Notes: generated by a model not told the origin, from the sequence alone. A stretch of 64,000 nt of DNA from Paraglaciecola hydrolytica (GCF_001565895.1 NZ_LSNE01000007.1:256845-320844); one strand, 5' to 3'; positions 23,905-46,175 are shown, numbered from the stretch's first letter. Translations and numbers: made by a program.

Positions 23905-25671
23905 TTAAGACGCGAGAACTACGCGGTTGCGACCATTTTCTTTGGCAATATAAAGAGCTTTATCGGCACGTTTTAGGCAGTCAGCAAATCGCTCGTTATC
24001 AAGATTTTGTGCAAGCCCCACTGAAACTGTGATGCTGTGGTCCAGCAGTAGCGAAAGTTCCTTGCTTAATTTTATGCGTAGTTTTTCGGCTAAAATTTGT
24101 GCGCCAGCTGCATTGGTACTTGGCAATATAATGACAAACTCTTCTCCGCCCCAGCGTGCAGCCAGATCCTCTTTACGTACCACGCTCTGCATAATCTTCG
24201 CTCCTTGAGCTAATACCTTGTCACCTGCATCATGCCCTAGGGTATCGTTTAAAAGTTTAAAGTGATCAAAGTCAATTAACATGACACAAAAATGAGCTGA
24301 ATTATGGCGCTGCTCATCATCTATATTTTCGATCGCTTCCATCAAGCCTCGACGGTTGAACAAAAGGGTCAGTGGATCTTGATTCGCCTGCACGACTAAG
24401 GTTTGCATAGCACGGCTGTCATTAATAAAACGTACGTAAGTTAAGTAGTTTTGGCACAGGGCAAATGACAGTAGTCCAAGCCCTGCCATATTGACGGTAC
24501 TGATTATTCCCAAACTATTGAATATGTCGTTTATTGATAATGAAAAAAGTAATATTGAACCCAGTGCCATCAAACGAGCACCTGTGCGCTTACGATAAGC
24601 GGCTAATAAAATCGAGTACAGGCCATAGACTAAGACAACCAAGGCAAAATATTGAAAATAAGCCATCAGGTAGCTAAATGTTACTGGTGGTGTAAACAGC
24701 GTCGTGACAACAAAAACGGCGGTAATACTGCAAATTGCAATCAGCGGTAAACGTCGAAATTCTTCGGGATAACTCAAGCGAAAATATCCGGTAAACAAGG
24801 GAAGAGCGAGATAAAAAGTTAGAAAATTAATACGTATTGCAGTGTTAAACGATAGTGATACGGAATCCGTTATATACAATATGTGACTGGTTTCTACTTC
24901 ACGCAGACCCAAACAGATACAACTAAGAGCCAGTAAAAATGGCAATAAATCTGATGGTCGTAACACAAAGTGAAACAAACTGAGTATCGCAATGGTGACA
25001 AAAATCGCGGCAACACTAACGCTGCGTATCAGTTTTTTCAGGTGAGCTTGAAATTGTTTATCGGCGGTAGCAAGGGTCATTGAAAACCATTGCCCGCCCC
25101 ACGCGAGTTCATAATTGGATACTTGTAATATCATATCCAGTTGTCCATTGGGTACGCTAATTTGAACGATTTTAGGAGCATATTGAGCAACTGAATCTTG
25201 TTTATTAGTGCCTACTTGACCCGCTTCATCGACTAAGGTTTGATTAACATACAAGCGATAAGCAGTGCCCATCACCGGTACAGACAAGGCAAGCAAGTCT
25301 GATGTCGGTTGAATGTTGATACGTAAGCGATACGTTGCAAAACCACTCGGTGTGATTTGCTGCCCTAAGAAGGTTTGTCTATCCCAAGACTTTGGTGCTT
25401 TTAATAATTCAACAGGTGAGTCTATTTCTGCGTCGAAACTCTCTGACATAACCAGTTGTTGCCAATAAAACTGCCATTCGCCTGCGAGTGGGATAGGTTC
25501 ACTTTGAGAAAGGTCAAGGGTACTGAGTTCGAGTTTTCCGCCTATGGCTTTGGGATGTTGGGTAAGCCAATTACCATTGATTTCAACAACCACACTGAAT
25601 AGCAATACAAATAAACATACACCAAGGACCGCAGCAGAAATCCGCGCTAAGGTTTTCGCTTGGGGCCACAA
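23905..25671 (-). CDS. Diguanylate cyclase with a 7TMR-DISM extracellular and 7-TM sensor module
   Basis: Signal/TM segment, a periplasmic ~200-aa domain, seven TM helices, then a GGDEF domain with RWGGEEF. Confidence 0.75.
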   Translation of the reverse strand: MWPQAKTLARISAAVLGVCLFVLLFSVVVEINGNWLTQHPKAIGGKLELSTLDLSQSEPIPLAGEWQFYWQQLVMSESFDAEIDSPVELLKAPKSWDRQTFLGQQITPSGFATYRLRINIQPTSDLLALSVPVMGTAYRLYVNQTLVDEAGQVGTNKQDSVAQYAPKIVQISVPNGQLDMILQVSNYELAWGGQWFSMTLATADKQFQAHLKKLIRSVSVAAIFVTIAILSLFHFVLRPSDLLPFLLALSCICLGLREVETSHILYITDSVSLSFNTAIRINFLTFYLALPLFTGYFRLSYPEEFRRLPLIAICSITAVFVVTTLFTPPVTFSYLMAYFQYFALVVLVYGLYSILLAAYRKRTGARLMALGSILLFSLSINDIFNSLGIISTVNMAGLGLLSFALCQNYLTYVRFINDSRAMQTLVVQANQDPLTLLFNRRGLMEAIENIDDEQRHNSAHFCVMLIDFDHFKLLNDTLGHDAGDKVLAQGAKIMQSVVRKEDLAARWGGEEFVIILPSTNAAGAQILAEKLRIKLSKELSLLLDHSITVSVGLAQNLDNERFADCLKRADKALYIAKENGRNRVVLAS

Positions 25672-25859: not shown

Positions 25860-28800
25860 TCACTCGTTCTTAATCTGCTTAACGTCGTTACCCATCCATA
25901 CCTTACTTAACAAATGCATGGCGGTGGCCACTCTATTGATTGGTTTGATCAAATCTGTGGTATCGGATTGTTGCATATCAAGTTTAATCGCCTCTAAACT
26001 CGCCGATATTTGCCCTAGTTGGCGTACGGCTTGAATTGTTGGGTCACCATCAATACTCAATTGTTTTTTACCACTAAAGGCACTGCAGATATGCACCCAA
26101 CGCTGTTGCTGGGCTTCGCTAATGACGCCACGCAATATGGCTAGTTTGAGTAGGTTCTCTTCTGCCCCAGACGTCAGCGTTTGCGCTTCGCCTGTATAGT
26201 GATCACCTATCAGTTGCATAAGCTCTCCATGGTTCATTACTGACGAGACTTTTTCCGCCATTTTGTTCATATTGCGATAACTGCCTTGCAGTTTAAATGG
26301 CGGTTCTTGGCGGTAGTCTTCGGCGGTTGCGGCAGACTTGATGTATTCTAAATTGACACTGAGAATGACATTCTGGATCACCAACAAGTGTTTCAGCACA
26401 GTGACTATTTCGTTGATTTCAGCGCCGCTATAAGCATGACTCAATTCGTTAGTGGCAACTTGATCACCTTGAGCCATGGCGATAAATTTATACACATCTT
26501 GCATGTCGCGCAGGGCGAGTGGCGCTAATACGGAGTTGGAGGTTAAAGCGTTTTCGATATAACTCAGGGCAAACTGCTCTTCTTTGCCACCAAGTACATC
26601 ACCTAGATTATAAATATCCGCACGGTTAGCTAACATGTCAGGCACTTTAAATACGTCACCTGATTCGGTGTAGGGGTTACCGGCCATTACTACGCTAAAT
26701 TTTTTGCCACGCATATCATAGGTTTTACTTTGACCTTTCCATACGCCTTCAATGCGTCTTGTACCATCACACAAGGCAATAAATTTCTGTAAAAACTCGG
26801 GATGAGTGTGCTGAATATCATCCAAATACAACATTACATTACTGCCCATTTCTAAACCGAGATTGAGCTTTTCGAGTTCTTGTTTGGCAGTGGCATTGGG
26901 CGCATTTGCAGGATCAAGTGAGCTAACATCATGGCCAAGTGACGGACAGTTTATCTTCATAAACACCAAACCGAGACGGTCAGCGACGTATTCCATTAAG
27001 GTGGTTTTACCATAGCCTGGCGGTGAAATAAGTAACAATAAGCCCATTAAATCGGTGCGTTTATTATCACCCAAGGCTCCCATTTGTTTGGCCAGATTAT
27101 CACCAATGATAGGTAAATATACTTCGTTTATCAGACGGTTACGCACAAATGAGCTTAGTGGTTTTGCCTTAAAGCTTTCTAGCTGCAGTTCATGTTTACT
27201 GCTAGCCATCACTTGTTGGCGAACGTGATGATATTGTTTGAAACCCTTGACCTCAACTTCCTGATAACGACCTAAACGTTGAATAAATTCATCTAGGGAT
27301 AAAGATAGTTGGCCGTTGTGGATATTGTGATGTTCGCTCAGTAGTCCGCTGACCGCGACGTCTAAGTTCACTTTGCTAGTACGGTTTTCTAACTTTTGCT
27401 GGCAAATAATCAAGGCGGCGGCTTCGGGCCAATAATGCCGTGCTTGGGCTAGGTGACTGTCGTTTAACATGGCACTGAGCCACGCTTGGCACAAACTCCA
27501 CTGTTCATTCAGACCTAAGACCTTAAACCCCAGGGAACTATCTTGTTTTGCCTCGGCTTTTTCAATCTGTTGATTAAATTGGCTCATGGCGGTGTTGAAG
27601 TCGCGGGTATGGCCAAGTGTCTCGATGGCAGTGATAAACTCTTGGTGCAGAGTTGTCGCGCTTTGGCTGTTAATAAAGGCAAACTTAGGTAGAGCTAATT
27701 CTGCACTTAAATACACAGCACTTTGTTTTATTTCCCGTGGGGCAAAGGGCAGGTTAAAACGTTGCACAAAAGCACTAATGTGAGTCTCAAGGTTTTGCTG
27801 TAATTGGGCAAAACCTTGCTGGCTATTAAAAGCATTGGCTAACAGTTGGGCACTAAAGGCATGACTTTGCCAAATTTGCTGTTGGGCTTTACTGATCCCC
27901 GCATAAGCCCAAAATAACATGGCAATGGCTCGTGCTTGTGGGTCAAAACGTAATAAGTCGGCTTGTTCGTGCACACTCAATAAGGCTTGCAGAATTTTAA
28001 CCACATCGTGGTCATGTACGCCTTTTTGATAACCTTCTTGATAGCGCGAAGTCATGTAGCCACGGACTAATTTTTCCAGCTCTGCGGCTTGATTCACCAT
28101 GGCATAAAGTTGTGGCAGAGTAAGTCCATTACGCTGCTGTTCGGCATCTTGAATAATGCTAAAGGCCAAATATTCAATACGACTTACGTGTTTGTTTTCT
28201 GATACTAAGGCTTGTTGCCAATAGGCTTTGAGCTCGTTTAACTGTGGGTGCTCAAGCTGCTCAAAAAAGTCAGTGCCGACCAAATGGCGATACAAGCCTT
28301 CATCTTTGGGTAATAACGTCAGTTCCAGACCTTGTGAGTTAACACTGAACTTGTGTTTACCCAATTTGATAACGGTGCCGCCATCTTCAAAGATATCTTG
28401 TTTGTCTCGCTGGCCACGAATACCGGCTTCTTTGGCGGCTTTAAGCTGGGCTTCAAGATCATCCGCTTTGACTTGATCCTTAAGGTCACGCAACTGCGCC
28501 ACCAAATCACTTAATTTGAGGATCATCGGATCGGAGGCAAAATAGGTATTAAGTTCGTCAAGCTGGTTAAAACCTAGTGCACGTTTTTTCACCCCAGTGA
28601 TAATGCGCTGGGCGGCACTAAAGAGGTTTTGTGCACGGCGCTGTTGTTCTTCAATTAAGCTTTGTTTACGACTGGCAAACGCGCTGTGTAACTCTTCGCG
28701 TTTGTCCATGATGTCACTGAGAAATTGATCGTATTCGCTAAATTTAGATTCCAACTCTTCTAACTGAATACTTAAACGTGATAATTGTTCATCGGCCTTT

Positions 28801-30941
28801 TCTGGGCTATCTGCCATGGCCAGTGCACTGCTAATGCTTTGTGAAAACAAACGGAATTGCGCGGCAAATTCTGCACTGGCTTCACCTGAACCCAGTTGTT
28901 TTAAGCGCTGTTTACCTTGGGCTTTAACTTGATTGAGCTTGGCATAAATTTCAGAGATATCGTCGAGGATTTTGGTGCGCACCGTGGCATCGTCGACTTT
29001 CAAACCATTTAGAATATCGGTGAGTAAGTCCAAGTCGGCCGATAAGGTATCTAATGCAAGATTTATTGGTTTGATATCAACCACTAAGTCTACTTGGGCT
29101 ATGGTGTTTTCTAAGGTAATTATCTTGTCATGATAGGGTTGCAGGGCTTTGTCGCTGGCTAAAAACTCAACGGTAATATGACTTAGTTGATCAAAGTGTT
29201 CACTGACTTCTTTATCGAGTTGCTCTAAACGCTCTTTATCGATGTAACGCTGTTCTTTAAGGCTGATCAAATGCCCGCGTTGCTGGCGTAAAGCCGTTAA
29301 ACAGGCCACATATTGCTCTGGCGTATGCCAATCATTCACCCGTATGCTGTCGATGACTTCTTGTTGTTTTTGCTCGGCTTTAGTCAGCGAATTATTAGCC
29401 TGCTGGCGAATTTGCAGGACTTTTTCGAATTCATCAATGACCAACTCTGCGGTATGGGTAATGTCTTTAACCACAGCGCCAAGTTCACTAAAATCGCTTT
29501 CGTTGAGCCAATAATAACTATCAAATAAAACACGGCAGGTTTTGATTAAGTCTTCATAGACTTGCCGGTTTGGATTGGGGTTAACAATATAACGGTGTAC
29601 CGCGTTGAGTTCGGCTATGCCACGCACTAATTCTTTATTACCAATACGCCCATAAACACTGTCGCTGGTGGGCTGTTTGGCGGCAAACTCACTACTAAAA
29701 TAAGGGGTTTGCCAAATTTGCATCGGGTGTACACGTGTGGCTTCGTTTTCAGCTTGAAATACCACCATAGTGCCGTTATCAAACACACTATAACCATGGG
29801 CATAAATCGGGTTTTGTAGCTCTTTGCGAATTAGGTTGTAAGAATATAAACCACTTAAACCTGATTCCGCTTCATGAAAAATATACAACACGTCTTCACC
29901 GTTAGGTGAGCGCACACTGCGTCTAAAGGTAAGGCCGGCTATTTCATCGGGAAACGATTTGCTTTCGCCATTTTGCAGATAATAACCACCGGGAAATATG
30001 ATCCCGTGATCTTCTGGCAACGATACACAGGCCAAGCCAATGGCATCAATACGCTTAACTGAATTGCTACGAGAATTAAATACTAAGTAGCGGTAGTTTT
30101 TTTCGCGGTAGGGCAGGATTTTAAACAAAATCAGGCTGCCCACTTGGGCATACTGGATATCGGCATCGGCTAAACTTTGGGTATGGTCTTCGACGGGTTC
30201 GTTATACACGCCTAAACCATCTTGGGTATTGTTTTCTACCTTGATGGTAAGGGTGCCACCCACCGTTTCTACAAAGGCCTTATCCAGTATATTGATATGG
30301 GGATGTTGGCCACTAACATGTTGTTCGCGCGCGGCTTTTAGCCAAATAAAATCGTGAGATGCGGCCTGTTTTAAAGCACGCTCACCACGATTATCAATAT
30401 AGCTCGCACTGCCATCTTTATTCACACGCCATTGAAAGACCCGTGTGTCTGCTAGCTTGCGGCCTATTTGAAAGACGGCAAACAAGGTTTGCTCTTGTAC
30501 TTTAAGTTGCAGTAAACGGGCTTCTTTGTAATAAACGTAGAGTTCGTTAAATTCTTTTTGAAAGGTGCTATCTGCTAAAAACGTTCCGGTTAATTCACGA
30601 GGATTTAGCTCAAAACCACTGTCGGTTTTACTCAGGCGATAAAGCCCAAAAACGTCGCTGATTTGGGTTTCTTTTTTCAAGCCAATAAATACGTTATAAC
30701 CAAACAGTATGCTGTCGCCCACCGGCACAATATCACGGGCTACGCAGTTATTTTCGGTGCGCACCCGCACGCGACCTAATACGTCGAGTTTGGTTTGACC
30801 AAATTCTGCGATACGTTGCTGGTTGTGTTGCTCTAGTTGTTGTTTAAGGGTGTTCGCTTGTTGCGTTAAACGCTGACGAATAACCTCATAAGCGCCGCCC
30901 TCGGCGACGGCCTGATCAACTTGAGTTTGCTCTGAAGCCAT
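25860..30941 (-). CDS. Giant (~1,690 aa) coiled-coil protein with a C-terminal MoxR/dynein-type (AAA_5-like) AAA+ ATPase; third gene of the yqiJ-flotillin operon
   Basis: Walker A GYGKTT is encoded at 27000-27017 and Walker B LYLDD at 26817-26831 (both verified on the DNA). A VVMAGNP motif lies downstream, as in MoxR/McrB/dynein AAA modules. The N-terminal ~600 aa are unassigned. The central ~600 aa have heptad-rich Q/E/L-rich coiled-coil character. The ATG at 30941 has an AAGGAA Shine-Dalgarno; the ORF-track start at 30983 is a TTG. Confidence 0.55.
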   Translation of the reverse strand: MASEQTQVDQAVAEGGAYEVIRQRLTQQANTLKQQLEQHNQQRIAEFGQTKLDVLGRVRVRTENNCVARDIVPVGDSILFGYNVFIGLKKETQISDVFGLYRLSKTDSGFELNPRELTGTFLADSTFQKEFNELYVYYKEARLLQLKVQEQTLFAVFQIGRKLADTRVFQWRVNKDGSASYIDNRGERALKQAASHDFIWLKAAREQHVSGQHPHINILDKAFVETVGGTLTIKVENNTQDGLGVYNEPVEDHTQSLADADIQYAQVGSLILFKILPYREKNYRYLVFNSRSNSVKRIDAIGLACVSLPEDHGIIFPGGYYLQNGESKSFPDEIAGLTFRRSVRSPNGEDVLYIFHEAESGLSGLYSYNLIRKELQNPIYAHGYSVFDNGTMVVFQAENEATRVHPMQIWQTPYFSSEFAAKQPTSDSVYGRIGNKELVRGIAELNAVHRYIVNPNPNRQVYEDLIKTCRVLFDSYYWLNESDFSELGAVVKDITHTAELVIDEFEKVLQIRQQANNSLTKAEQKQQEVIDSIRVNDWHTPEQYVACLTALRQQRGHLISLKEQRYIDKERLEQLDKEVSEHFDQLSHITVEFLASDKALQPYHDKIITLENTIAQVDLVVDIKPINLALDTLSADLDLLTDILNGLKVDDATVRTKILDDISEIYAKLNQVKAQGKQRLKQLGSGEASAEFAAQFRLFSQSISSALAMADSPEKADEQLSRLSIQLEELESKFSEYDQFLSDIMDKREELHSAFASRKQSLIEEQQRRAQNLFSAAQRIITGVKKRALGFNQLDELNTYFASDPMILKLSDLVAQLRDLKDQVKADDLEAQLKAAKEAGIRGQRDKQDIFEDGGTVIKLGKHKFSVNSQGLELTLLPKDEGLYRHLVGTDFFEQLEHPQLNELKAYWQQALVSENKHVSRIEYLAFSIIQDAEQQRNGLTLPQLYAMVNQAAELEKLVRGYMTSRYQEGYQKGVHDHDVVKILQALLSVHEQADLLRFDPQARAIAMLFWAYAGISKAQQQIWQSHAFSAQLLANAFNSQQGFAQLQQNLETHISAFVQRFNLPFAPREIKQSAVYLSAELALPKFAFINSQSATTLHQEFITAIETLGHTRDFNTAMSQFNQQIEKAEAKQDSSLGFKVLGLNEQWSLCQAWLSAMLNDSHLAQARHYWPEAAALIICQQKLENRTSKVNLDVAVSGLLSEHHNIHNGQLSLSLDEFIQRLGRYQEVEVKGFKQYHHVRQQVMASSKHELQLESFKAKPLSSFVRNRLINEVYLPIIGDNLAKQMGALGDNKRTDLMGLLLLISPPGYGKTTLMEYVADRLGLVFMKINCPSLGHDVSSLDPANAPNATAKQELEKLNLGLEMGSNVMLYLDDIQHTHPEFLQKFIALCDGTRRIEGVWKGQSKTYDMRGKKFSVVMAGNPYTESGDVFKVPDMLANRADIYNLGDVLGGKEEQFALSYIENALTSNSVLAPLALRDMQDVYKFIAMAQGDQVATNELSHAYSGAEINEIVTVLKHLLVIQNVILSVNLEYIKSAATAEDYRQEPPFKLQGSYRNMNKMAEKVSSVMNHGELMQLIGDHYTGEAQTLTSGAEENLLKLAILRGVISEAQQQRWVHICSAFSGKKQLSIDGDPTIQAVRQLGQISASLEAIKLDMQQSDTTDLIKPINRVATAMHLLSKVWMGNDVKQIKNE

Positions 30942-30998
30942 TATTGATTCCTTGTCAAACAATGGGCGGCGAGTGGCCGCCAAATTGAGATAACACTG

Positions 30999-33002
30999 TT
31001 ATTTTTTTGGGTTCAGAGCGCTACCTATGATGTCTAACAACTGGGGATTGGATTGACCTTCTTTTAATAATTTAGCCACCAGTGCGGTGATAGCTGTGTC
31101 TTTCACACTGCCACTGGCATTGCCAAAACCGGCTACCAGCTCTTTGGCATCTTCGACAAAGCTGGCATCCCCGTTGAGGTGATCTTTAAAGGCTGTTTGT
31201 AAGGTTTGACTTTTATTCATGGTGCCATCAATGGCTTTACCCACAGAAATGGATTTAACAAAGCTGTCTAAGTAACTGCTGTCACCACTAACAATATCAA
31301 TCTTCGCGGCTTTCAGAGCGGCGGATAATACGGTGGCTTGCTCTTTGGCAATATCCACATTGGTGCGAATAGACTCCATGATTTCGGCGTGACCGTTATC
31401 AAGTTGCATTCTGAATTCTTCATGGGCACGTTGTTGTTCAGACATAGTGCCCATGGCGGCAAACTTAAGGGTCATACCTTCGGCTTCAGCGGCGGCTTTT
31501 TTGGCTGTCACTTGCGCTTCGGCGATACCGGTTTTTTCTACCGCATCGGCCATGGCTTCTTGTACACGCACTTGTGCCATGCCCTCTTGTTCTTTGGCTA
31601 AGGCTTGCGCTTCCATGACTTTGGCGGCAGCAAGACCTGGAGCAGCTTCAAGGGCTTCTTTACCTTCTGCTTCTTTACGTTGGCCCATGGCACGTTTTTC
31701 GGCAACATCTAAATCGGCAGCAGCATCTATGCCTTTTTGTCTGGCTATGTGACTGGCTGATTTTTCAGCGGCTTCAGCGGCTTTAATATCTTTGACTAGG
31801 GCTTCTTCAGCTTCTGCTTCTGCAGCAATGACCTTGGCTTTTCTGTGGCGCTCGGCATCCGAGACCATGCGCAATTCGTTAATTTCTTCTTCACGTTGGG
31901 CAACGGTTTTATCTACTTCAATACGTGAACGGATCACGTCGGCAATTTCACGTTTTTCGTGCTCAAGTAATTTTTCATTGGCAATACGTTGCAAAGAAGC
32001 TTCTTTTTCACGGTCAATTTGCTCAAGTTCACGGGCACGGATAACACGCTCTTCTTCAATAGCCACGGCGCGTAAACGATTGTTGTGAGCAACTTCAACT
32101 TCACGTTGTTTGTTTTGTTCTTGTACTTCAATTTCTTGGGCTGCGGTCACTCGAGCTTGATCTGATTTGAGTTTTTCTTCGTGTTGTACCCTTTCAGTTT
32201 CAGCTTGTTCGCGGGCGATGACGGTTTGAATTTCACGTTTTTGCTTGGCTTCGGCATCGGCCTGTTGACGCTCTAATTCCAAGATGGCTTCACGGGTTTC
32301 AACGTCCTTACGTTTGATTTTCATCTCTTCGTCACGGCGAAACACGTTGGTTTGAATGTGCTGTTCGGCGGTTAATTCGGTTATTTTACGAATACCTTGA
32401 GAGTCGAGAATATTGTTGGGATCAAGCTTTTCAACGGGGGTTTGCTCAAGATAATCGATGGCGACATCTTCAAGCACATAGCCGTTTAAATCGGTACCGA
32501 TGTTATCAATAATCATATCGCGGAACTTGTCGCGTTTGGCATATAAGTCTTCAAAATCCAGGGACTTACCAACGGTTTTTAAGGCTTCGGAAAACTTAGC
32601 ACTGAACAAATCTTCTAAGGTCGCAATGTTTGATGCACGTTCACAGCCAATGGCTTGGGCTACTTTGAGCACGTCATCACGGTTTTTGTTCACCTTAACA
32701 AAAAAGCCTACTTTGATGTCTGCGCGAATATTATCCTTACAAATCAAACCTTCAGAGCCACTGCGGTCGACTTCAATGGCTTTCAGCGAGATATCCATGA
32801 TTTCCATTTTATGGAAAACCGGGATCACCACCGAACCGGTAAAAGTGACTTTGGGTTCTTCGCGCATGGTATTGACGATCATGGCGCGGCCTTGCTCTAC
32901 TTTTTTGTAGAGTTTGGCCATCATTAAGATGGCGGCCATGATAAATATAAAAATACCAACTGCCAGTGACAACCAAAAGATTAGGTTGGTGGGCTCGTTC
33001 AT
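30999..33002 (-). CDS. yqiK: Flotillin-like SPFH/band-7 protein (YqiK/FloT family) with an extended E/A/K/R-rich coiled coil
   Basis: N-terminal TM helix, an SPFH domain, then a long EA-repeat coiled coil and a C-terminal flotillin tail. GGAG Shine-Dalgarno. Confidence 0.75.
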   Translation of the reverse strand: MNEPTNLIFWLSLAVGIFIFIMAAILMMAKLYKKVEQGRAMIVNTMREEPKVTFTGSVVIPVFHKMEIMDISLKAIEVDRSGSEGLICKDNIRADIKVGFFVKVNKNRDDVLKVAQAIGCERASNIATLEDLFSAKFSEALKTVGKSLDFEDLYAKRDKFRDMIIDNIGTDLNGYVLEDVAIDYLEQTPVEKLDPNNILDSQGIRKITELTAEQHIQTNVFRRDEEMKIKRKDVETREAILELERQQADAEAKQKREIQTVIAREQAETERVQHEEKLKSDQARVTAAQEIEVQEQNKQREVEVAHNNRLRAVAIEEERVIRARELEQIDREKEASLQRIANEKLLEHEKREIADVIRSRIEVDKTVAQREEEINELRMVSDAERHRKAKVIAAEAEAEEALVKDIKAAEAAEKSASHIARQKGIDAAADLDVAEKRAMGQRKEAEGKEALEAAPGLAAAKVMEAQALAKEQEGMAQVRVQEAMADAVEKTGIAEAQVTAKKAAAEAEGMTLKFAAMGTMSEQQRAHEEFRMQLDNGHAEIMESIRTNVDIAKEQATVLSAALKAAKIDIVSGDSSYLDSFVKSISVGKAIDGTMNKSQTLQTAFKDHLNGDASFVEDAKELVAGFGNASGSVKDTAITALVAKLLKEGQSNPQLLDIIGSALNPKK

Positions 33003-33039
33003 TGGGTAGCTCCTGCTTGAGGGTTAGATAAGATAATAA

Positions 33040-33687
33040 TTAAGAGCTTGATGACATGGCCATCAGTTCAGATTCTGTTACTACGGAATAACAATCTTGG
33101 GCCACAAGATAGTCAATCAGTACGATTTTGTTGCCCTTACCAATGGTGTTAGGACTAGAGGCTCTCACGCTCAATACCATACCGTCGGGCGTCACAGCTT
33201 GACCAAAGGTTTCACTGACACTCAGGGTAGTTAGGGTGCAAATGGTGCCTATAAGCTCATTTTTTGCCACACCTTCGTGAGTGATAAAAAAACGCCGTAA
33301 AGGTCTAATACATAAAGCCGACAAGGGCAGGGCGATAACAATGGCAAAAGCCGCGACTACAGCACCTTGGGCCGTTGCTGTAAGTACACCATCAAATAAA
33401 GGGGCGGCATATTTGCGCGCTAAGTAGGTAAAACTAAAAGCGTAAATATCAATAAGGGTCAGGGACACGGTTAAGGGCACGCCGTTTAAGCCGAGTTTTT
33501 CGAGCCAGGATGTGCCGGCCGAACCTGCTTCTGCATCTCCACCTGCATCACTGTCTGTTCCAAAGTCGAGAATGTCTAAGTCTAACAATCCAGCAAAGGC
33601 CATTAACCACAACAAGGTCAGTATGATCAGTGGAATGGTAAAAATGATGGTGGGGAAGCTGAATACTTCGTTGAGAAAAAGATCCAT
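33040..33687 (-). CDS. yqiJ: YqiJ/NfeD-like inner-membrane protein (DUF1449), the conserved partner of flotillin
   Basis: ~215 aa. TM helices, an acidic Gly-rich loop (DSDAGGDAEAGSAG) and a C-terminal OB-fold-like segment. Lies 37 bp upstream of the flotillin gene, mirroring E. coli yqiJK. Confidence 0.55.
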   Translation of the reverse strand: MDLFLNEVFSFPTIIFTIPLIILTLLWLMAFAGLLDLDILDFGTDSDAGGDAEAGSAGTSWLEKLGLNGVPLTVSLTLIDIYAFSFTYLARKYAAPLFDGVLTATAQGAVVAAFAIVIALPLSALCIRPLRRFFITHEGVAKNELIGTICTLTTLSVSETFGQAVTPDGMVLSVRASSPNTIGKGNKIVLIDYLVAQDCYSVVTESELMAMSSSS

Positions 33688-34072
33688 TTTCAATACTCCG
33701 ATACAGCTTGGTAAGAGTTAATGCTTATTCAGGCGAACAGAAAACTACTCATTCGTGGGGCTTTTGTCAATCATTCCATAGAATAGGAAAATAGGGTTGC
33801 CGTGATCAGCGGTCACTACTTATCAATGAACCACCGCTTGAGGTTTGTTAATAAGACAGTGCAAGGTAGTGCTTATGCAATAGTGAAAACCTAAGTCGGA
33901 ATGGTATGTTCTGGATACGTATTTTAATAGCCTATATTCAGCACTGAAATGCTAAAATTGCTCTCTATTTTGCACCGTATTTTTTTATAAAATCGCCAAT
34001 AAAAATGCACTTGAATCTCTGGTATTTAACTTCTAGTATCGCTAGGTCTTTTATGTAAAAGGAATCGCGTTA

Positions 34073-35293
34073 ATGACCTTATTATTTAGCTCTTTGTTTA
34101 CTAGTTCTTTATTTACTAATAAGGGCAAAAAAGTCAGTGTCTTAGTTTTATCCTTCTGCTTGTTTTTTAAGATTCAGGCCAATGAAGCAAACATCCCCGA
34201 ATCTTTTAAAGGCGATACGCCAAGTTCAAGTTATACGATTAAATATAACGATATTGATCTGCTATTTAATAGTTTAGTGATGGCGACGGGTATGTCTGAT
34301 CGTAAAAAAACCAAAGGCGATCAGGCCGAAATGGGAAGTCGCTTAAAAATAAATATTAATCGCCTAAGTGCCTCCGAGGCTAACCGTTTTTATTTTGAAG
34401 CATTAGAAACAGATGAGCAAAGAGCGGTAATAACTAATATTCGTAAAAATTTAGAAAAACTGCCAGACACTGCTCCTTTGCAATACTTCCATAAAAGTGA
34501 ACAACTGGCCTATTGGTTAAATCTTTATAACATCACCATGATTGAGCAATTGATTAAGCTCTATCCACAAAAAGATTTAGAAGATGAATTTGTCGGTAAG
34601 GATTCAATTTTAGATAAAAAACTATTAAAGGTTTCAGGTATCGAACTGAGTTTTAACGATATTCAACATAAAATTTTGATGCCCAAGTTTGATAACGATC
34701 CATTGATTATTTATGGCCTTTATCAAGGCTTCATTGGTGGCCCTAATATCAGACCTGAAGCTTATAAAGGTGATTCTGTTTTTCAGTCACTAAAAGACAA
34801 TGCTTATGAATTTGTTAACTCTAACCGAGGCACATATGCAGAGCGTCGCAATGTGTTTCGAGTATCGAGTTTGTACGAACGTAATAAAAACTATTTTCCT
34901 AATTTTGAGGCGGATTTAGTCAAACATCTGCATGAATATCTCATTGGTGAAATGCATCAATCCTTAGATGACTCTACCAAAATCCGCACAAACATTAATA
35001 ACTGGGATATAACCGATATCTATGGCTCTCTTAGAAAGTCAGGAAACAGCGCGATGACCTCGGAAGCCGCGTTACTAGATGCTGTAGTGGGTAACGCCGA
35101 CAATGGAGGAACCATGGTGAGTTTGAATGCCATTAGTAATATGTATGCAGATATCGCGCAGTCGTCGCTTAGTCGCTTCTCACCAGAACAATTAGCCCAG
35201 ATCCAAGCTTTAAGTTTCAAGCGTGCGCAAAATGCCGGTTATGTTGAAGTCACTGACTTTGATACCCCATCAAGAGTCGAGAAAAACAATTAA
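34073..35293 (+). CDS. Secreted DUF547 family protein (paralogue 1)
   Basis: Signal peptide, and the conserved DUF547 core including EQLAYWLNLYN. Confidence 0.5.
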   Translation: MTLLFSSLFTSSLFTNKGKKVSVLVLSFCLFFKIQANEANIPESFKGDTPSSSYTIKYNDIDLLFNSLVMATGMSDRKKTKGDQAEMGSRLKININRLSASEANRFYFEALETDEQRAVITNIRKNLEKLPDTAPLQYFHKSEQLAYWLNLYNITMIEQLIKLYPQKDLEDEFVGKDSILDKKLLKVSGIELSFNDIQHKILMPKFDNDPLIIYGLYQGFIGGPNIRPEAYKGDSVFQSLKDNAYEFVNSNRGTYAERRNVFRVSSLYERNKNYFPNFEADLVKHLHEYLIGEMHQSLDDSTKIRTNINNWDITDIYGSLRKSGNSAMTSEAALLDAVVGNADNGGTMVSLNAISNMYADIAQSSLSRFSPEQLAQIQALSFKRAQNAGYVEVTDFDTPSRVEKNN

Positions 35294-35500: not shown

Positions 35501-36706
35501 ATGAAATCAATGCTGATATTAATTAAAAGAATAAGCATGACTGCGGTGATGCTAAGTATCATCACAGCGGTAAATGCTGATGAAAAAAATGTGCCAGAGC
35601 CATTTAAAGGCGATAATCCCAGCTCCAGTTATAGCATTCTGTACGACGATATCGATGTACTCTTCAGAGGCACAGTGCTAGCTACCGGAATGTCTGACAG
35701 GGCCAGAGCCAAAGAATCCTCTGCAGAGATTGGTAGTAGAATTAAAACCAATGTAAATAGTTTAACTGCGTTGGAGGGCAATCGTTTTTTCTATGAGGCC
35801 TTTGAAACAGAAGAAGATAAAGCAATCTTAAGCAACATCCGCAAAAACCTAGAAGAGTTGCCCTCTACGGCACCCTTAAAACACTTTCATAAAAGCGAAC
35901 AACTGGCTTATTGGCTTAATCTATACAACATCACTTTATTAGATGAAATCGTAAAAATATATCCAAAACGTGATTTAGAAGATCAACTGGAAGGGAAAAA
36001 TTCGCTACTCAATAAAAAACTATTAAAAGTGTCTGGCGTAACACTGAGTTTGAATGACATTCACCATAAAATATTGATGCCAAAATATGACAATGATCCG
36101 CTGATTATCTATGGCTTGTATCAAGGAGTGATTGGCGGGCCGAATATTCGTCGTGAAGCCTACAAAGGTGAAACGGTGTTTTCAGCCTTAAAAGAAAACG
36201 CTTATGAATTTGTTAATTCTAACCGTGGTACATACGCTGACAGAGGCGGGGTGTTCAGAGTCTCTAGTTTGTATGAGCGTAATGAAGACTATTTCCCTAA
36301 TTTCAAAAGCGATCTAAAAGCTCATTTGGAAAAGTATATTATTGGCGATATGAATTATTACTTGGAAGAGTCGAAACGAATTCGTACTAATATTAGCAAC
36401 TGGGATATTACCGATCTTTATGGCTCTAAACGTAAATCTAATAGTAGTTCAGCAACATCTGAAGCGGCGTTATTAGACGCAGGTAGTAGTAACAATGACG
36501 CCCTTCCTGAGCAACTGAAAGGCGCTGGAATTTTCACTCAAGGTGCGTTAAGTGACACTTTCTCCAGACTGTCTCCCGAAATCAGCCGTTTTACACCAGA
36601 GCAGTTAGCACAAATTAGAGCGTTGCACTTTAAGGCTGCAGATAATGCAGGGCGTGTAGAAGTAACGGATATTGAAAAAGAAGAATCCACCGAAGAACAA
36701 AATTAA
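35501..36706 (+). CDS. Secreted DUF547 family protein (paralogue 2, ~65-70% identical to paralogue 1)
   Basis: Same motifs as the upstream gene (SEQLAYWLNLYNIT, PNIRREAYKG, RFTPEQLAQIRAL). Signal peptide. Confidence 0.5.
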   Translation: MKSMLILIKRISMTAVMLSIITAVNADEKNVPEPFKGDNPSSSYSILYDDIDVLFRGTVLATGMSDRARAKESSAEIGSRIKTNVNSLTALEGNRFFYEAFETEEDKAILSNIRKNLEELPSTAPLKHFHKSEQLAYWLNLYNITLLDEIVKIYPKRDLEDQLEGKNSLLNKKLLKVSGVTLSLNDIHHKILMPKYDNDPLIIYGLYQGVIGGPNIRREAYKGETVFSALKENAYEFVNSNRGTYADRGGVFRVSSLYERNEDYFPNFKSDLKAHLEKYIIGDMNYYLEESKRIRTNISNWDITDLYGSKRKSNSSSATSEAALLDAGSSNNDALPEQLKGAGIFTQGALSDTFSRLSPEISRFTPEQLAQIRALHFKAADNAGRVEVTDIEKEESTEEQN

Positions 36707-43191: not shown

Positions 43192-44172
43192 ATGACAATT
43201 AAACAGCATTATCGCTGGGGCATCATTGGTTGTGGTGATGTATGTGAAGTTAAAAGCGCTCCTGCTTATCAAAGGGTCGCAGGCTTTGAATTAGTCGCTG
43301 TGATGTCTCGTAGTCTGGCAAAAGCACAAGACTTTGCCCAACGTCACAAAGTGCCTAAGTACTATGATAACGCATAACAACTGATTGATGATCCTGAAAT
43401 CGACGCAGTTTATATAGCCACGCCGCCTGACAGCCATTACGAATACGCTTTACAAGTCGCCAAGGCTGGTAAAATCTGCTGTGTTGAAAAACCCATGGCA
43501 CTTAATTTTAACCAATGTATCGGCATGCAGCAGGCTTTTGCTCTGCAACAACTGCCTTTGTTTGTCGCCTATTACCGTCGTTCGCTACCAGGTTTTAAAC
43601 AGATTAAACACTGGCTGGATGCCGCTGAAATTGGTCAGGTCAGACATATTCACTGGCAATATACCCGCCCTCCCAGCACCATTGATTTAGCTCAAACCCG
43701 CAATTGGCGTACCCAAAAAGAAATTGCCAAAGCGGGTTATTTTGAAGATATAGCCAGTCATGGCTTAGATCTGATGAGTTACTTTTTGGGCCCAGTTAAA
43801 CAGGCACAAGGTGTGGCGAGTAACCAACAAGGTTTGTATTCTGCTTATGATGCGGTGGCGGCAAGCTTGTTATTTGAATCGGGTGTGACAGGCACAGGTT
43901 TCTGGAATTTTGCCGCAGATCGTTTGGTTGATAAAGTTCAGATTATGGGTGAATCAGGTCAAATTAGCTTTAGTGTATTTGAAGACGGTTTGGCGCTACT
44001 TGAATCAAAGGATAAATATATTACTTATCCTTTGGACAAACCCAGCCCCGTTCAGGCTGACTTTGTCAGTGATATCGCCTTTCATTTAGCTGGTAAAAGC
44101 TTACATCCTTCCCTTGCTGAGAGTGCGGCACATACCAATTGGCTGATGGATACCATATTAAAAGATGCTTAA
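43192..44172 (+). pseudogene. Gfo/Idh/MocA-family NAD(P)-dependent oxidoreductase interrupted by one in-frame TAA at 43375-43377
   Basis: Rossmann N-terminus (WGIIGCGDV). The sequence reads YYDNA*QLIDDPEIDAVYIATP across the stop, where family members normally have Glu (GAA). Both ORF pieces are in the same frame. Confidence 0.6.
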
Positions 44173-44439
44173 GCTTATCTATACCCAAACAACCCTCAGA
44201 AGCGCCGTACCGGTGGGTTTAAATCCGTTTTATACCGCGTTAAATGCTTTCGATTTAGTCCCTTTCTTATAAACAAAGAACACCTTCAAGCATTCGCCTT
44301 GTCTAAAATGGATTTAATTCCCACTGAAAAATGTGTATGGAACACATTTTAACAACCGCAGATTGACCTAGGGTGAATACTATGGATGGTATTCATAATC
44401 CTGCATCTTCAGGTTGCTTGGGTATATACAATGCCAGCG

Positions 44440-44604
44440 TCACAGTGAACTTCCGCGCTTAGGGTTTTTCATGCGGCTATCTAACAAAACGGCTCCACAT
44501 CCTTCCTGTGCCAGTTCATCATTAACATTGTAAATAGGGCAGGACTTCATGGACAAACATCCACAGCCAATACAGCCGGTCAGCGAATCACCATCAGCCA
44601 ACAC
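44440..44604 (-). CDS. Possible small Cys-rich ORF (~54 aa) with a GTG start; may be a gene remnant
   Basis: Translation ...SLTGCIGCGCLSMKSCPIYNVNDELAQEGCGAVLL... contains six Cys. No convincing Shine-Dalgarno. Below the ORF-track cutoff. Confidence 0.2.
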   Translation of the reverse strand: MLADGDSLTGCIGCGCLSMKSCPIYNVNDELAQEGCGAVLLDSRMKNPKRGSSL

Positions 44605-44692
44605 CCCAATCAAACCTAATGTTTACAATGGATTGTTTTAATTATATTAAATAAAAGAATTTTATTATGATGTATCGCTCTTTAAATACTGG

Positions 44693-45781
44693 CTAAGACA
44701 TACATAACTTTTTTGCATATAATTTTGCCATATCTCTAAAAGGTACTTCTATAAATTTATAAGTCAAACTTGCGAATACCACCGTAATACTCATAACAAA
44801 AAGACTAAATAATACACTTCTAAAGGGATTGAATTCTGAAACTACTAAATCAAAAATATATTCTAATATAAGCTGTGTCACAGATATCATGATGCTATGT
44901 ATCATATAAATAGAGTAAGACCAAAGGCCAATTAAACGTAAAATTTGTTTATTTAGAATGCTACCTATAACCCCATCTTTTTTAGATGAAAATACGAAAA
45001 TAGCAAACATAAATGCTAATAACGCAAGTACAAATGAATATGGGCTAATAGATGCCAAGCTAACTGTTGTTACTAGAAATGTGACAGTAAGAAGCTCTAG
45101 CAATTGAATATATTTTATTGACCATGACTCCTCTTGGATAGAATCTTGAATTCGATGAAGAATTACACCTAAATAAAATGCACCAATACAGCGAATCCCT
45201 CCATAATCATGTGTAATATTAAGACTATCTCTACCCAAAGAGATTAAAAAAGCATATGCAGTTACTGAGACAATAATGCAAGGAATAATTTTGCTTTTTT
45301 TGTCGATATATAGCGAAAAGATAAAAAAGAATACATATGCAAAAAATTCACTACTGATACTCCAACTGGGCACATTCCAACTATTTCCATCATTAATACC
45401 GAAAGACTGTATAAAAAAAACATGGGTAACAAATGACACAAAGTTATTGTTTTCATCAAACTGTTCTGACCCACCAAATCCATAAACAAAAAGAATTTGC
45501 TTAAAAGTCAAGTAAACAAGCCAAACAAGTAAGATTGTAATGTGCAATGGGTAAAGCCTCCCCAATCTTGCAATAATATATGCTTTAAAAGGGAAACCGT
45601 TGTGAATTCGAACACCATATGCAAGTGACATAACAAAACCAGACAACACAAAAAAAAAGTCAACAAAAAGGTAACTATTTTGAATAAATTGAAAACTAAA
45701 GTTTCCAACTTTTATTTGGCAGTGGTACAAAACCACTAAAAGTGCAGCCAAGCCCCTCAAAGATTCAAGCTTATAGAGCAT
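44693..45781 (-). CDS. Acyltransferase family 3 (OatA/OpgC-like) integral membrane acyltransferase, in an AT-rich islet
   Basis: 362 aa with ~10 TM helices. N-terminal LRGLAALLVVLYH motif typical of Acyl_transf_3. Confidence 0.6.
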   Translation of the reverse strand: MLYKLESLRGLAALLVVLYHCQIKVGNFSFQFIQNSYLFVDFFFVLSGFVMSLAYGVRIHNGFPFKAYIIARLGRLYPLHITILLVWLVYLTFKQILFVYGFGGSEQFDENNNFVSFVTHVFFIQSFGINDGNSWNVPSWSISSEFFAYVFFFIFSLYIDKKSKIIPCIIVSVTAYAFLISLGRDSLNITHDYGGIRCIGAFYLGVILHRIQDSIQEESWSIKYIQLLELLTVTFLVTTVSLASISPYSFVLALLAFMFAIFVFSSKKDGVIGSILNKQILRLIGLWSYSIYMIHSIMISVTQLILEYIFDLVVSEFNPFRSVLFSLFVMSITVVFASLTYKFIEVPFRDMAKLYAKKLCMS

Positions 45782-46175
45782 AAGCGTTCCTTATTTTCAA
45801 TATTTACTCATAAAATATCATTAAACAATATGAAGGGGCATAGTTAAGTGCAATTTTGGCTCCAAAGGACATCCAAATCTTACAAACATTTAGGATTATA
45901 AGTCTCAGAATTATCACGCTGCCCGCGTATATTTAAATTTAGATTAAATTCAATAAAAACAATTAGCTATTTGAAACCGATTCCGGCCCAGAAGACCACC
46001 GAAATGACATGTTGTTATTTTTCTAATGGCGAAGAAATTCTTTATTAGCTACACATTATGACTAACAAAATGACAAACTTTGTAACAATCCAACTCGCCC
46101 AGCAACGTCACTAACCTTTGGAAATTTGACGCTTTAACTTATAGTGAGGGCATTGCTGTTTAATGGATATAACTA

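Follow-up and report, generated by a model that had tools for sequence, protein, structure and literature searches.

Bacterial flotillins are usually seen as passive, ATP-independent scaffolds, and the phenotypes of their deletion are notoriously weak. In Escherichia coli and Bacillus subtilis they are encoded in two-gene operons together with an NfeD-type partner (yqiJ-yqiK and yuaF-floT, respectively). We describe here a longer version of this arrangement in Paraglaciecola hydrolytica, in a stretch of 64,000 nucleotides (NZ_LSNE01000007.1:256845-320844, referred to below as the window), where the genes for a YqiJ/NfeD-like membrane protein and a YqiK-type flotillin are followed by a gene encoding a giant ATPase (Table 1). 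Comparative genomics has already described this system, which is also known as a transcription unit of Pseudomonas aeruginosa, and the role that we favor has been proposed before. In mSystems, Ravi et al. (2024, PMC11237479) reported a neighborhood of YqiJ, a Band-7/flotillin protein and a beta-propeller AAA+ ATPase around PspA, together with abbreviated operons – flotillin and YqiJ, with or without the ATPase, and lacking the CesT/Tir-PspA pair – that are more widely distributed, and offered no mechanism beyond 'chaperone-like / membrane dynamics'. The initial annotation of the window, made without database searches, had not recognized the three genes as a described operon, and on this point it is superseded by that report, which includes the PspA-less form.

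In P. aeruginosa the corresponding genes were first described as a biofilm-associated cluster, PA3732-PA3729 (Mace 2008, PMC2587700), and reverse-transcription PCR across every junction from bacA to PA14_16200 has shown that they form one six-gene operon, bacABCDEF (Wallart 2024, PMC10948618), equivalent to PA3732-PA3727 and PA14_16140-16200. The junction between the flotillin gene bacD and the gene directly after it, bacE (PA14_16190), is among those shown to be co-transcribed in strain PA14, and BacB-F co-accumulate 6- to 13-fold in a bacA mutant (PMC10948618). We infer that bacC, bacD and bacE are orthologues of the YqiJ-like gene, the flotillin gene (PaFlo3) and the giant ATPase gene (PA3728 / PA14_16190), the last of these because of its gene position and because PA3728 is listed as an 'ATPase' (PMC8190622). 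A P. aeruginosa-group genome in our own sample (locus L063) has its genes in the bac order, with proteins of corresponding size and a PLD gene in sixth place. Only 17 genes are upregulated across all phage-infected P. aeruginosa samples, and PA3728-PA3732 belong to this group (PMC12041424); the same genes also increase jointly in proteome data (PMC13637947). Osmotic shock induces PA3731, the gene of the PspA homologue (PMC2587700), and PA3728 is recurrently mutated in P. aeruginosa cystic-fibrosis isolates (PMC8190622). The published bac phenotypes, in biofilm formation, swarming and virulence, are those of bacA and bacB; none concerns the ATPase.

The P. hydrolytica locus very probably represents the abbreviated, PspA-less form of the Ravi et al. 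module and of bacCDE. It contains the YqiJ/YuaF-type multi-transmembrane protein, the protein with transmembrane, Band-7, coiled-coil and flotillin segments, and the propeller AAA+ ATPase, and it differs from the full form in lacking the CesT/Tir-PspA pair and the PLD hydrolase; otherwise there is no difference of substance. The P. aeruginosa operon adds bacA (DUF2170, CesT/Tir-like), bacB (PspA), bacF (PLD-like hydrolase) and a proposed sigma-54 promoter, none of which is present in the window. The first two genes are homologous to those of the two-gene operons of E. coli and B. subtilis and lie in the same order, but in E. coli K-12 yqiK is followed by sibD/ibsD and there is no ATPase gene.

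Listing of the open reading frames in the window places the three genes consecutively on the minus strand, separated by spacers of 37 bp (YqiJ-like/flotillin) and 57 bp (flotillin/ATPase), with purine-rich ribosome-binding motifs GGAG, AGGAG and AAGGA ahead of the three ATGs. All of the coordinates, spacers and Shine-Dalgarno motifs given in the initial annotation agree with this listing, and the short spacers on one strand are consistent with co-transcription of the three genes. The ATPase start codon (ATG 30941) corresponds to the start in homologues covering 100% of the protein.

The association of these genes is conserved. We collected 80 loci in a scan using one genome per species, and compared all of their open reading frames with the window proteins by BLASTP. 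The loci span many gammaproteobacterial orders, Delta- and Zeta-proteobacteria and Acidobacteria, and for 70 of them the upstream DNA extends to 3 kb or more, which sets the denominator for counts of upstream genes. The three genes directly adjoin one another on the same strand in 68/70 of these, and the flotillin and YqiJ-like pair lies upstream of the ATPase gene in 69/70, if L080 is counted, a locus in which two PD-(D/E)XK transposase genes alone split the flotillin from the ATPase gene (L080:5957-7988). L080 and L012 are the only two loci with a non-contiguous triad. The same order of genes, encoding proteins of ~212 aa, ~650-690 aa and a giant protein, is also present in Natronoglycomyces (Actinobacteria), Flavobacterium, a Lachnospiraceae metagenome-assembled genome and a fourth distant lineage, and the identity of the flotillin to the window protein drops in parallel with that of the ATPase (51/44, 43/41, 44/41 and 30/34%, for the four lineages in that order). 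The triad is thus real and very widely conserved, occurring in Proteobacteria, Actinobacteria, Bacteroidota, Firmicutes and Acidobacteria. The initial annotation had proposed that the giant protein is a partner of the flotillin and NfeD-like proteins, and had asked whether orthologues are routinely found without such neighbors; they are not, and the association is stronger than had been proposed.

The ATPase itself belongs to a large family. There are more than 5,679 homologues, with the same length and domain set among the matches listed, and the closest orthologues, also among the matches listed, are in Paraglaciecola (87-91% identity). A cluster search with the N-terminal 700 aa as the query retrieves 936 clusters at 50% identity; members of full length keep to 1,600-1,900 aa at identities as low as 28%. 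We note one member, P0282 (1,876 aa), in which ankyrin repeats are fused to the DUF3686-AAA architecture. No convincing transmembrane segment was found in the ATPase, and from its sequence it is predicted to be soluble, with the YqiJ-like protein and the flotillin as its membrane-anchored partners.

The N-terminal ~600 aa had been left unassigned, but Pfam matches there are strong. DUF3686 (PF12458) matches residues 32-477 (E = 2.9e-198; 659.3 bits against a cut-off of 25) and DUF7902 matches residues 598-681 (96.5 bits against a cut-off of 26). An AlphaFold2 model of residues 1-700 has a mean predicted local distance difference test score (pLDDT) of 84.9, and contains ~28 strands in seven groups of about four, forming a seven-bladed beta-propeller within DUF3686 that is preceded by a long N-terminal helix (aa 4-47) and followed by an arm of spectrin-like helical bundles. 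Foldseek comparison of this model with the PDB returns the beta-propellers of Elp1, the DCAF1 WD40 domain, Kelch proteins, the clathrin terminal domain and IFT-A (E = 3e-6 to 1e-4) at low TM-scores.

Toward the C-terminus, Pfam AAA_5 (aa 1302-1425, E = 2e-6) and AAA (E = 1.3e-6) together cover residues ~1300-1425. The Walker A (GYGKTT) and Walker B (LYLDD) motifs lie exactly where the initial annotation had placed them, and its GNP motif corresponds to a sensor-1 AGNP. In an alignment of 113 diverse full-length members SPPGYGKTT, hhhhDD, AGNP, PDMLANRAD and QGSYRNMNK are invariant or nearly so, and the AAA region has a mean identity of 69%, compared with 29-42% for the rest of the protein. These features suggest an active enzyme, whose DD in Walker B is unusual and shared across the family. 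The overall layout is that of an N-terminal helix, a seven-bladed propeller, helical repeats, a divergent AAA+ core and a C-terminal helical domain.

This core is a divergent one among AAA+ proteins. Comparisons using hhalign with RavA, McrB, FtsH, ClpX, Lon and RuvB align little past the P-loop and Walker B, and Foldseek analysis of the C-terminal model returns a generic set (ClpA, NorQ, Skd3, RuvB and MCM), the TM-scores being low and the model of low confidence. Of the characterized systems, MoxR-VWA pairs (RavA-ViaA, NorQ-NorD) are similar in some respects: AAA_5 is the Pfam family giving the fullest cover of the core, JGI describes some members as 'MoxR-like ATPase', and NorQ is among the top Foldseek matches. 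On the other side, the hhalign match to E. coli RavA has a probability of 18.6%, a PDB search with the family profile brings up no MoxR chain, Walker B has DD rather than DE, and there is no VWA-domain gene among the Pfam-annotated neighbors in six diverse loci or beside the window genes. A MoxR-like motif layout that we had read by eye was dropped, as the hhalign comparisons did not confirm it. For McrBC, the alignment with E. coli McrB is confined to 23 P-loop columns, and no McrC-like neighbor is present in the six diverse loci. The initial annotation had named MoxR-VWA and McrB systems as examples of a known family with an unrelated role; the ATPase appears to lie outside the characterized MoxR-VWA and McrBC systems.

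The other two proteins are more easily placed by profile than by domain search. The window flotillin and YqiJ-like protein have no match at curated thresholds in Pfam, NCBIfam or PADLOC scans (the nearest being NCBIfam FloT, E = 5.7e-4, and Pfam YqiJ_N, E = 0.04 only), and Pfam matches Band_7 in 2/20 and Flot in 3/20 of the flotillin orthologues. PDB sequence searches with the single proteins and family profiles of all three proteins also yielded no informative relative. The labels were therefore taken from comparison of profiles, built from 20 orthologues each, with E. coli K-12 proteins. In hhalign the flotillin profile matches E. coli YqiK with 99.9% probability (E = 3.2e-33; 27% identity over 410 columns) and the YqiJ-like profile matches E. 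coli YqiJ with 94.5% probability (E = 7.4e-8). These comparisons indicate that both labels, which the initial annotation had also used, are right and that both proteins are divergent subfamily members. The flotillin has an N-terminal membrane anchor (hydrophobic segment aa 3-33), an SPFH domain, a coiled coil and a conserved C-terminal region; the EA-rich character ascribed to the coiled coil is evident in its composition (18% Glu and 19% Ala over aa ~211-520). It is ~110 aa longer than YqiK, and its subfamily is mostly missed by Pfam Band_7. The YqiJ-like protein has hydrophobic segments at aa 3-41 and 100-131; it is membrane-spanning in its N-terminal part, and its soluble C-terminal domain can be aligned with E. 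coli YqiJ.

What might such a module do? Overall, it is probably best explained as a known and broadly distributed three-gene envelope module in which ATP would drive the remodelling of flotillin and PspA scaffolds during envelope stress. A specific mechanism can be proposed tentatively, in which YqiJ and the flotillin would form an SPFH scaffold at the inner membrane, on its cytoplasmic side, and the ATPase would dock on it through its propeller and helical arm; structures of the type modeled here usually serve for docking between proteins. The ATPase, acting as an AAA+ oligomer, would then use ATP to build up, take apart or reshape the flotillin lattice and, where a PspA gene adjoins, could do likewise to the ESCRT-III-type PspA polymer during envelope stress. 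The analogies are with Vps4 acting on ESCRT-III and with FtsH inside HflK/C cages, in both of which a membrane scaffold polymer (an ESCRT-III/PspA filament or an SPFH cage) is paired, genetically or physically, with an AAA+ machine. The likeness is one of working principle: the giant ATPase has neither a protease nor an MIT domain, shows no detectable relationship to FtsH or Vps4 past the generic AAA+ core, and has a propeller and helical arm with no counterpart in either system. A stronger form, in which the giant protein is a dedicated ATP-driven recycling and remodelling motor of flotillin cages and linked PspA/ESCRT-III polymers, a prokaryotic functional counterpart of Vps4 or p97, is doubtful. 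If it held, the modeled propeller and helical-repeat arm would recall the way in which propeller and solenoid are arranged in eukaryotic membrane-coat proteins; the weak Foldseek matches of the N-terminal model include the clathrin terminal domain, IFT-A and nucleoporins.

Several observations weigh against the proposed remodelling mechanism. The invariant DD in Walker B, instead of the usual DE, could mean slow hydrolysis; the C-terminal model has a pLDDT of 64.9, which is low confidence; and profile searches place the ATPase in no known AAA+ clade, so that threading of a substrate and action as a switch are not distinguished. In L012, a Methyloprofundus metagenome-assembled genome, the ATPase gene occurs without its partners, with genes for a GH114 protein and a DEAD-box helicase upstream (L012:1-8000). 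The window has no PspA, rhomboid or PLD gene, and a PspA-directed role would need to be exerted in trans. Deletion of PaFlo3, the orthologous flotillin, in PA14 reduces biofilm by ~20% and has no other phenotype (PMC13086221), and our literature search found no experiment on the ATPase itself or its activity.

Among other explanations, membrane-protein quality control is the most substantial, although we regard it as unlikely. The flotillin cage would corral damaged or orphan proteins, the AAA+ core would extract or unfold them, and linked proteases (rhomboid, M90) or others would degrade them, in a manner resembling endoplasmic-reticulum-associated degradation or HflKC-FtsH. There are precedents, in that HflK/C SPFH cages enclose the AAA+ protease FtsH, and in eukaryotes the erlins, of the SPFH type, cooperate with p97 and the rhomboid-like derlins. 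A rhomboid gene is located directly downstream of the ATPase gene in 27/73 loci and an M90 metallopeptidase with a SEC-C motif in some, but the window and all of the Alteromonadaceae loci lack the rhomboid, and the ATPase has no protease domain of its own. The best Foldseek AAA+ matches include the unfoldases ClpA, Skd3/ClpB and Cdc48, but at very low TM-scores and from a low-confidence model, and by eye there is no aromatic residue where pore-loop 1 would lie.

A role in anti-phage defense or abortive infection, with the ATPase sensing infection and triggering a membrane-level response through the flotillin, is suggested by the induction of PA3728-PA3732 in phage-infected cells and by weak matches to IetA (PADLOC, E = 6.7e-4) and IteA (NCBIfam, E = 8e-4), but appears decidedly improbable. 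The IteA match is to the P-loop region only (aa 1301-1341; 18.6 bits against a cut-off of 510), the IetA match is as weak (17.2 bits) with no IetS-type partner gene, and phage induction is also shown by the classical Psp envelope-stress response. Moreover, the neighbors are housekeeping genes – purD in the window, dnaA/gyrB in Teredinibacter and yidC/mnmE in Pseudoalteromonas – and the three genes diverge in parallel across phyla, unlike patchy defense islands. Least credible of all, to the point that we give it almost no weight, is the idea that this is a DNA-repair ATPase lying beside membrane genes by happenstance. It derives from the Pfam description of DUF3686 ('ATPase involved in DNA repair') and the NCBI product name 'DNA repair ATPase', together with weak RuvB matches, but the Pfam, NCBIfam and PDB-sequence matches to RuvB involve ~35-45 residues around Walker A, and that found by hhalign ends at Walker B (74 columns). 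Neither domain scans nor structure matches reveal a nucleic-acid-binding or nuclease domain, and every conserved neighbor acts at the membrane. In a literature search DUF3686, DUF7902 and PF12458 gave no entry at all, and no paper giving a DNA-repair phenotype was found. An ATP-driven function at the flotillin scaffold remains the reading that we prefer.

Table 1. Positions of the module, its domains and motifs, and flanking features. Nucleotide coordinates refer to the window, except those prefixed by a locus name; aa, amino acids; nt, nucleotides.
Feature	Position	Strand	Details
YqiJ/NfeD-like inner-membrane protein gene	33040..33687	-	215 aa from ATG 33687; open reading frame spans 33040-33693
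YqiK-type flotillin (SPFH/Band-7) gene	30999..33002	-	667 aa
Giant soluble ATPase gene, DUF3686-DUF7902-AAA+ family	25860..30941	-	1,693 aa from ATG 30941; open reading frame 25860-30983; predicted soluble
DUF3686	29511-30848	-	aa 32-477, Pfam
Seven-bladed beta-propeller	29709..30785	-	aa 53-411, within DUF3686; AlphaFold2 model
Helical-repeat arm	28842..29657	-	aa 429-700, spectrin-like helical bundles; includes DUF7902 (aa 598-681, nt 28899-29150)
AAA+ ATPase core	26502..27071	-	aa ~1291-1480; Pfam AAA_5, AAA
Walker A SPPGYGKTT	27000-27017 (GYGKTT)	-
Walker B LYLDD	26817-26831	-	DD not DE
Sensor-1 AGNP	26673-26684	-	aa 1420-1423
Conserved Arg R1440 in PDMLANRAD	26622-26624	-
G+C-rich hairpin GGCGGC-CACTC-GCCGCC	30965..30981	-	just past flotillin stop, in 57-bp spacer; scan for terminator-like structures
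Candidate sigma-70-type promoter TTGACA-17 nt-TAGTTT	33742..33770	-	~55 nt upstream of yqiJ-like ATG; weak, by eye
7TMR-DISM + GGDEF diguanylate cyclase gene	23905-25671	-	588 aa; 188 bp past ATPase gene if TTG start is used
Two tandem DUF547 paralogues	34073-35293, 35501-36706	+	406 and 401 aa; divergent from operon
Downstream accessory genes, examples	L001:15302-17256; L010; L063:13213-13920

The flotillin-ATPase spacer contains a short G+C-rich hairpin, and hairpins of differing sequence occupy the equivalent position in four relatives (L009, L004, L007 and L008). For the window spacer the stability of the fold does not reach significance (z = -1.4). The median spacer length in 68 loci is ~154 nt, and very strong structure is frequent there (for example in L063 and L079). 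The hairpin may act as an attenuator or an mRNA-stability element that sets a high ratio of flotillin to ATPase. Upstream of the YqiJ-like gene there is a weak candidate sigma-70-type promoter, absent from the list returned by a scan for consensus promoters. A sigma-54 promoter such as that proposed for bacA was considered for the window operon and rejected, there being no sigma-54-type site in the intergenic region 33688-34072 even with three mismatches allowed.

The accessory genes of the module vary between loci, and all of the recurrent ones act at the membrane. A DUF2170 (CesT/Tir-like) and PspA gene pair lies directly upstream in 49/70 loci; tblastn with the PspA and DUF2170 proteins of L001 gave no match in the window. 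A Zn-ribbon protein gene, like that for the M90 metallopeptidase, is found downstream of the ATPase gene in some loci, and in the P. aeruginosa group the gene that follows codes for a PLD/HKD hydrolase, presumably bacF. At the distant locus L088 (L088:1-3978) ankyrin-repeat genes adjoin the triad, and a PspA gene is located ~6 kb downstream.

In the window, the operon is flanked by two divergent DUF547 genes, a diguanylate cyclase gene and purD. DUF547 homologues were not found beside the module in other loci. The cyclase gene follows closely on the same strand, and the initial annotation had suggested a shared transcript; the sole other locus with a full-length homologue after the ATPase gene is L009, the nearest relative, and neither the next Paraglaciecola locus nor any of the rest has one. 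The cyclase is therefore a matter of local synteny and lies outside the system, and the suggested link falls away. GGDEF-domain genes are also present shortly downstream in two Pseudomonas loci (L077:13284-14522 and L049:14650-15801), where the similarity is at the level of the domain only; as GGDEF genes are abundant, this adjacency is probably chance. Elsewhere in the window, positions 44001-46000 have a G+C content of 0.345, compared with ~0.43 for the remainder, and a negative GC skew, and may be a horizontally acquired segment.

To the published descriptions of this module our analysis adds the count of its linkage (69/70 loci) together with the triad in four distant lineages, the divergence of the flotillin in step with that of the ATPase, and the family-wide DD Walker B within a strongly conserved AAA core. 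It also finds no support for the 'DNA repair' name, and the product name 'DNA repair ATPase' is probably misleading for annotation. The nearly invariable linkage of a flotillin subfamily to a ~1,700-residue AAA+ machine with intact catalytic motifs suggests that flotillin and PspA biology includes a step that consumes energy. If the giant protein does act as a motor, its near-obligate triad in at least six bacterial phyla would represent an ancient energy-dependent layer of membrane-microdomain dynamics.

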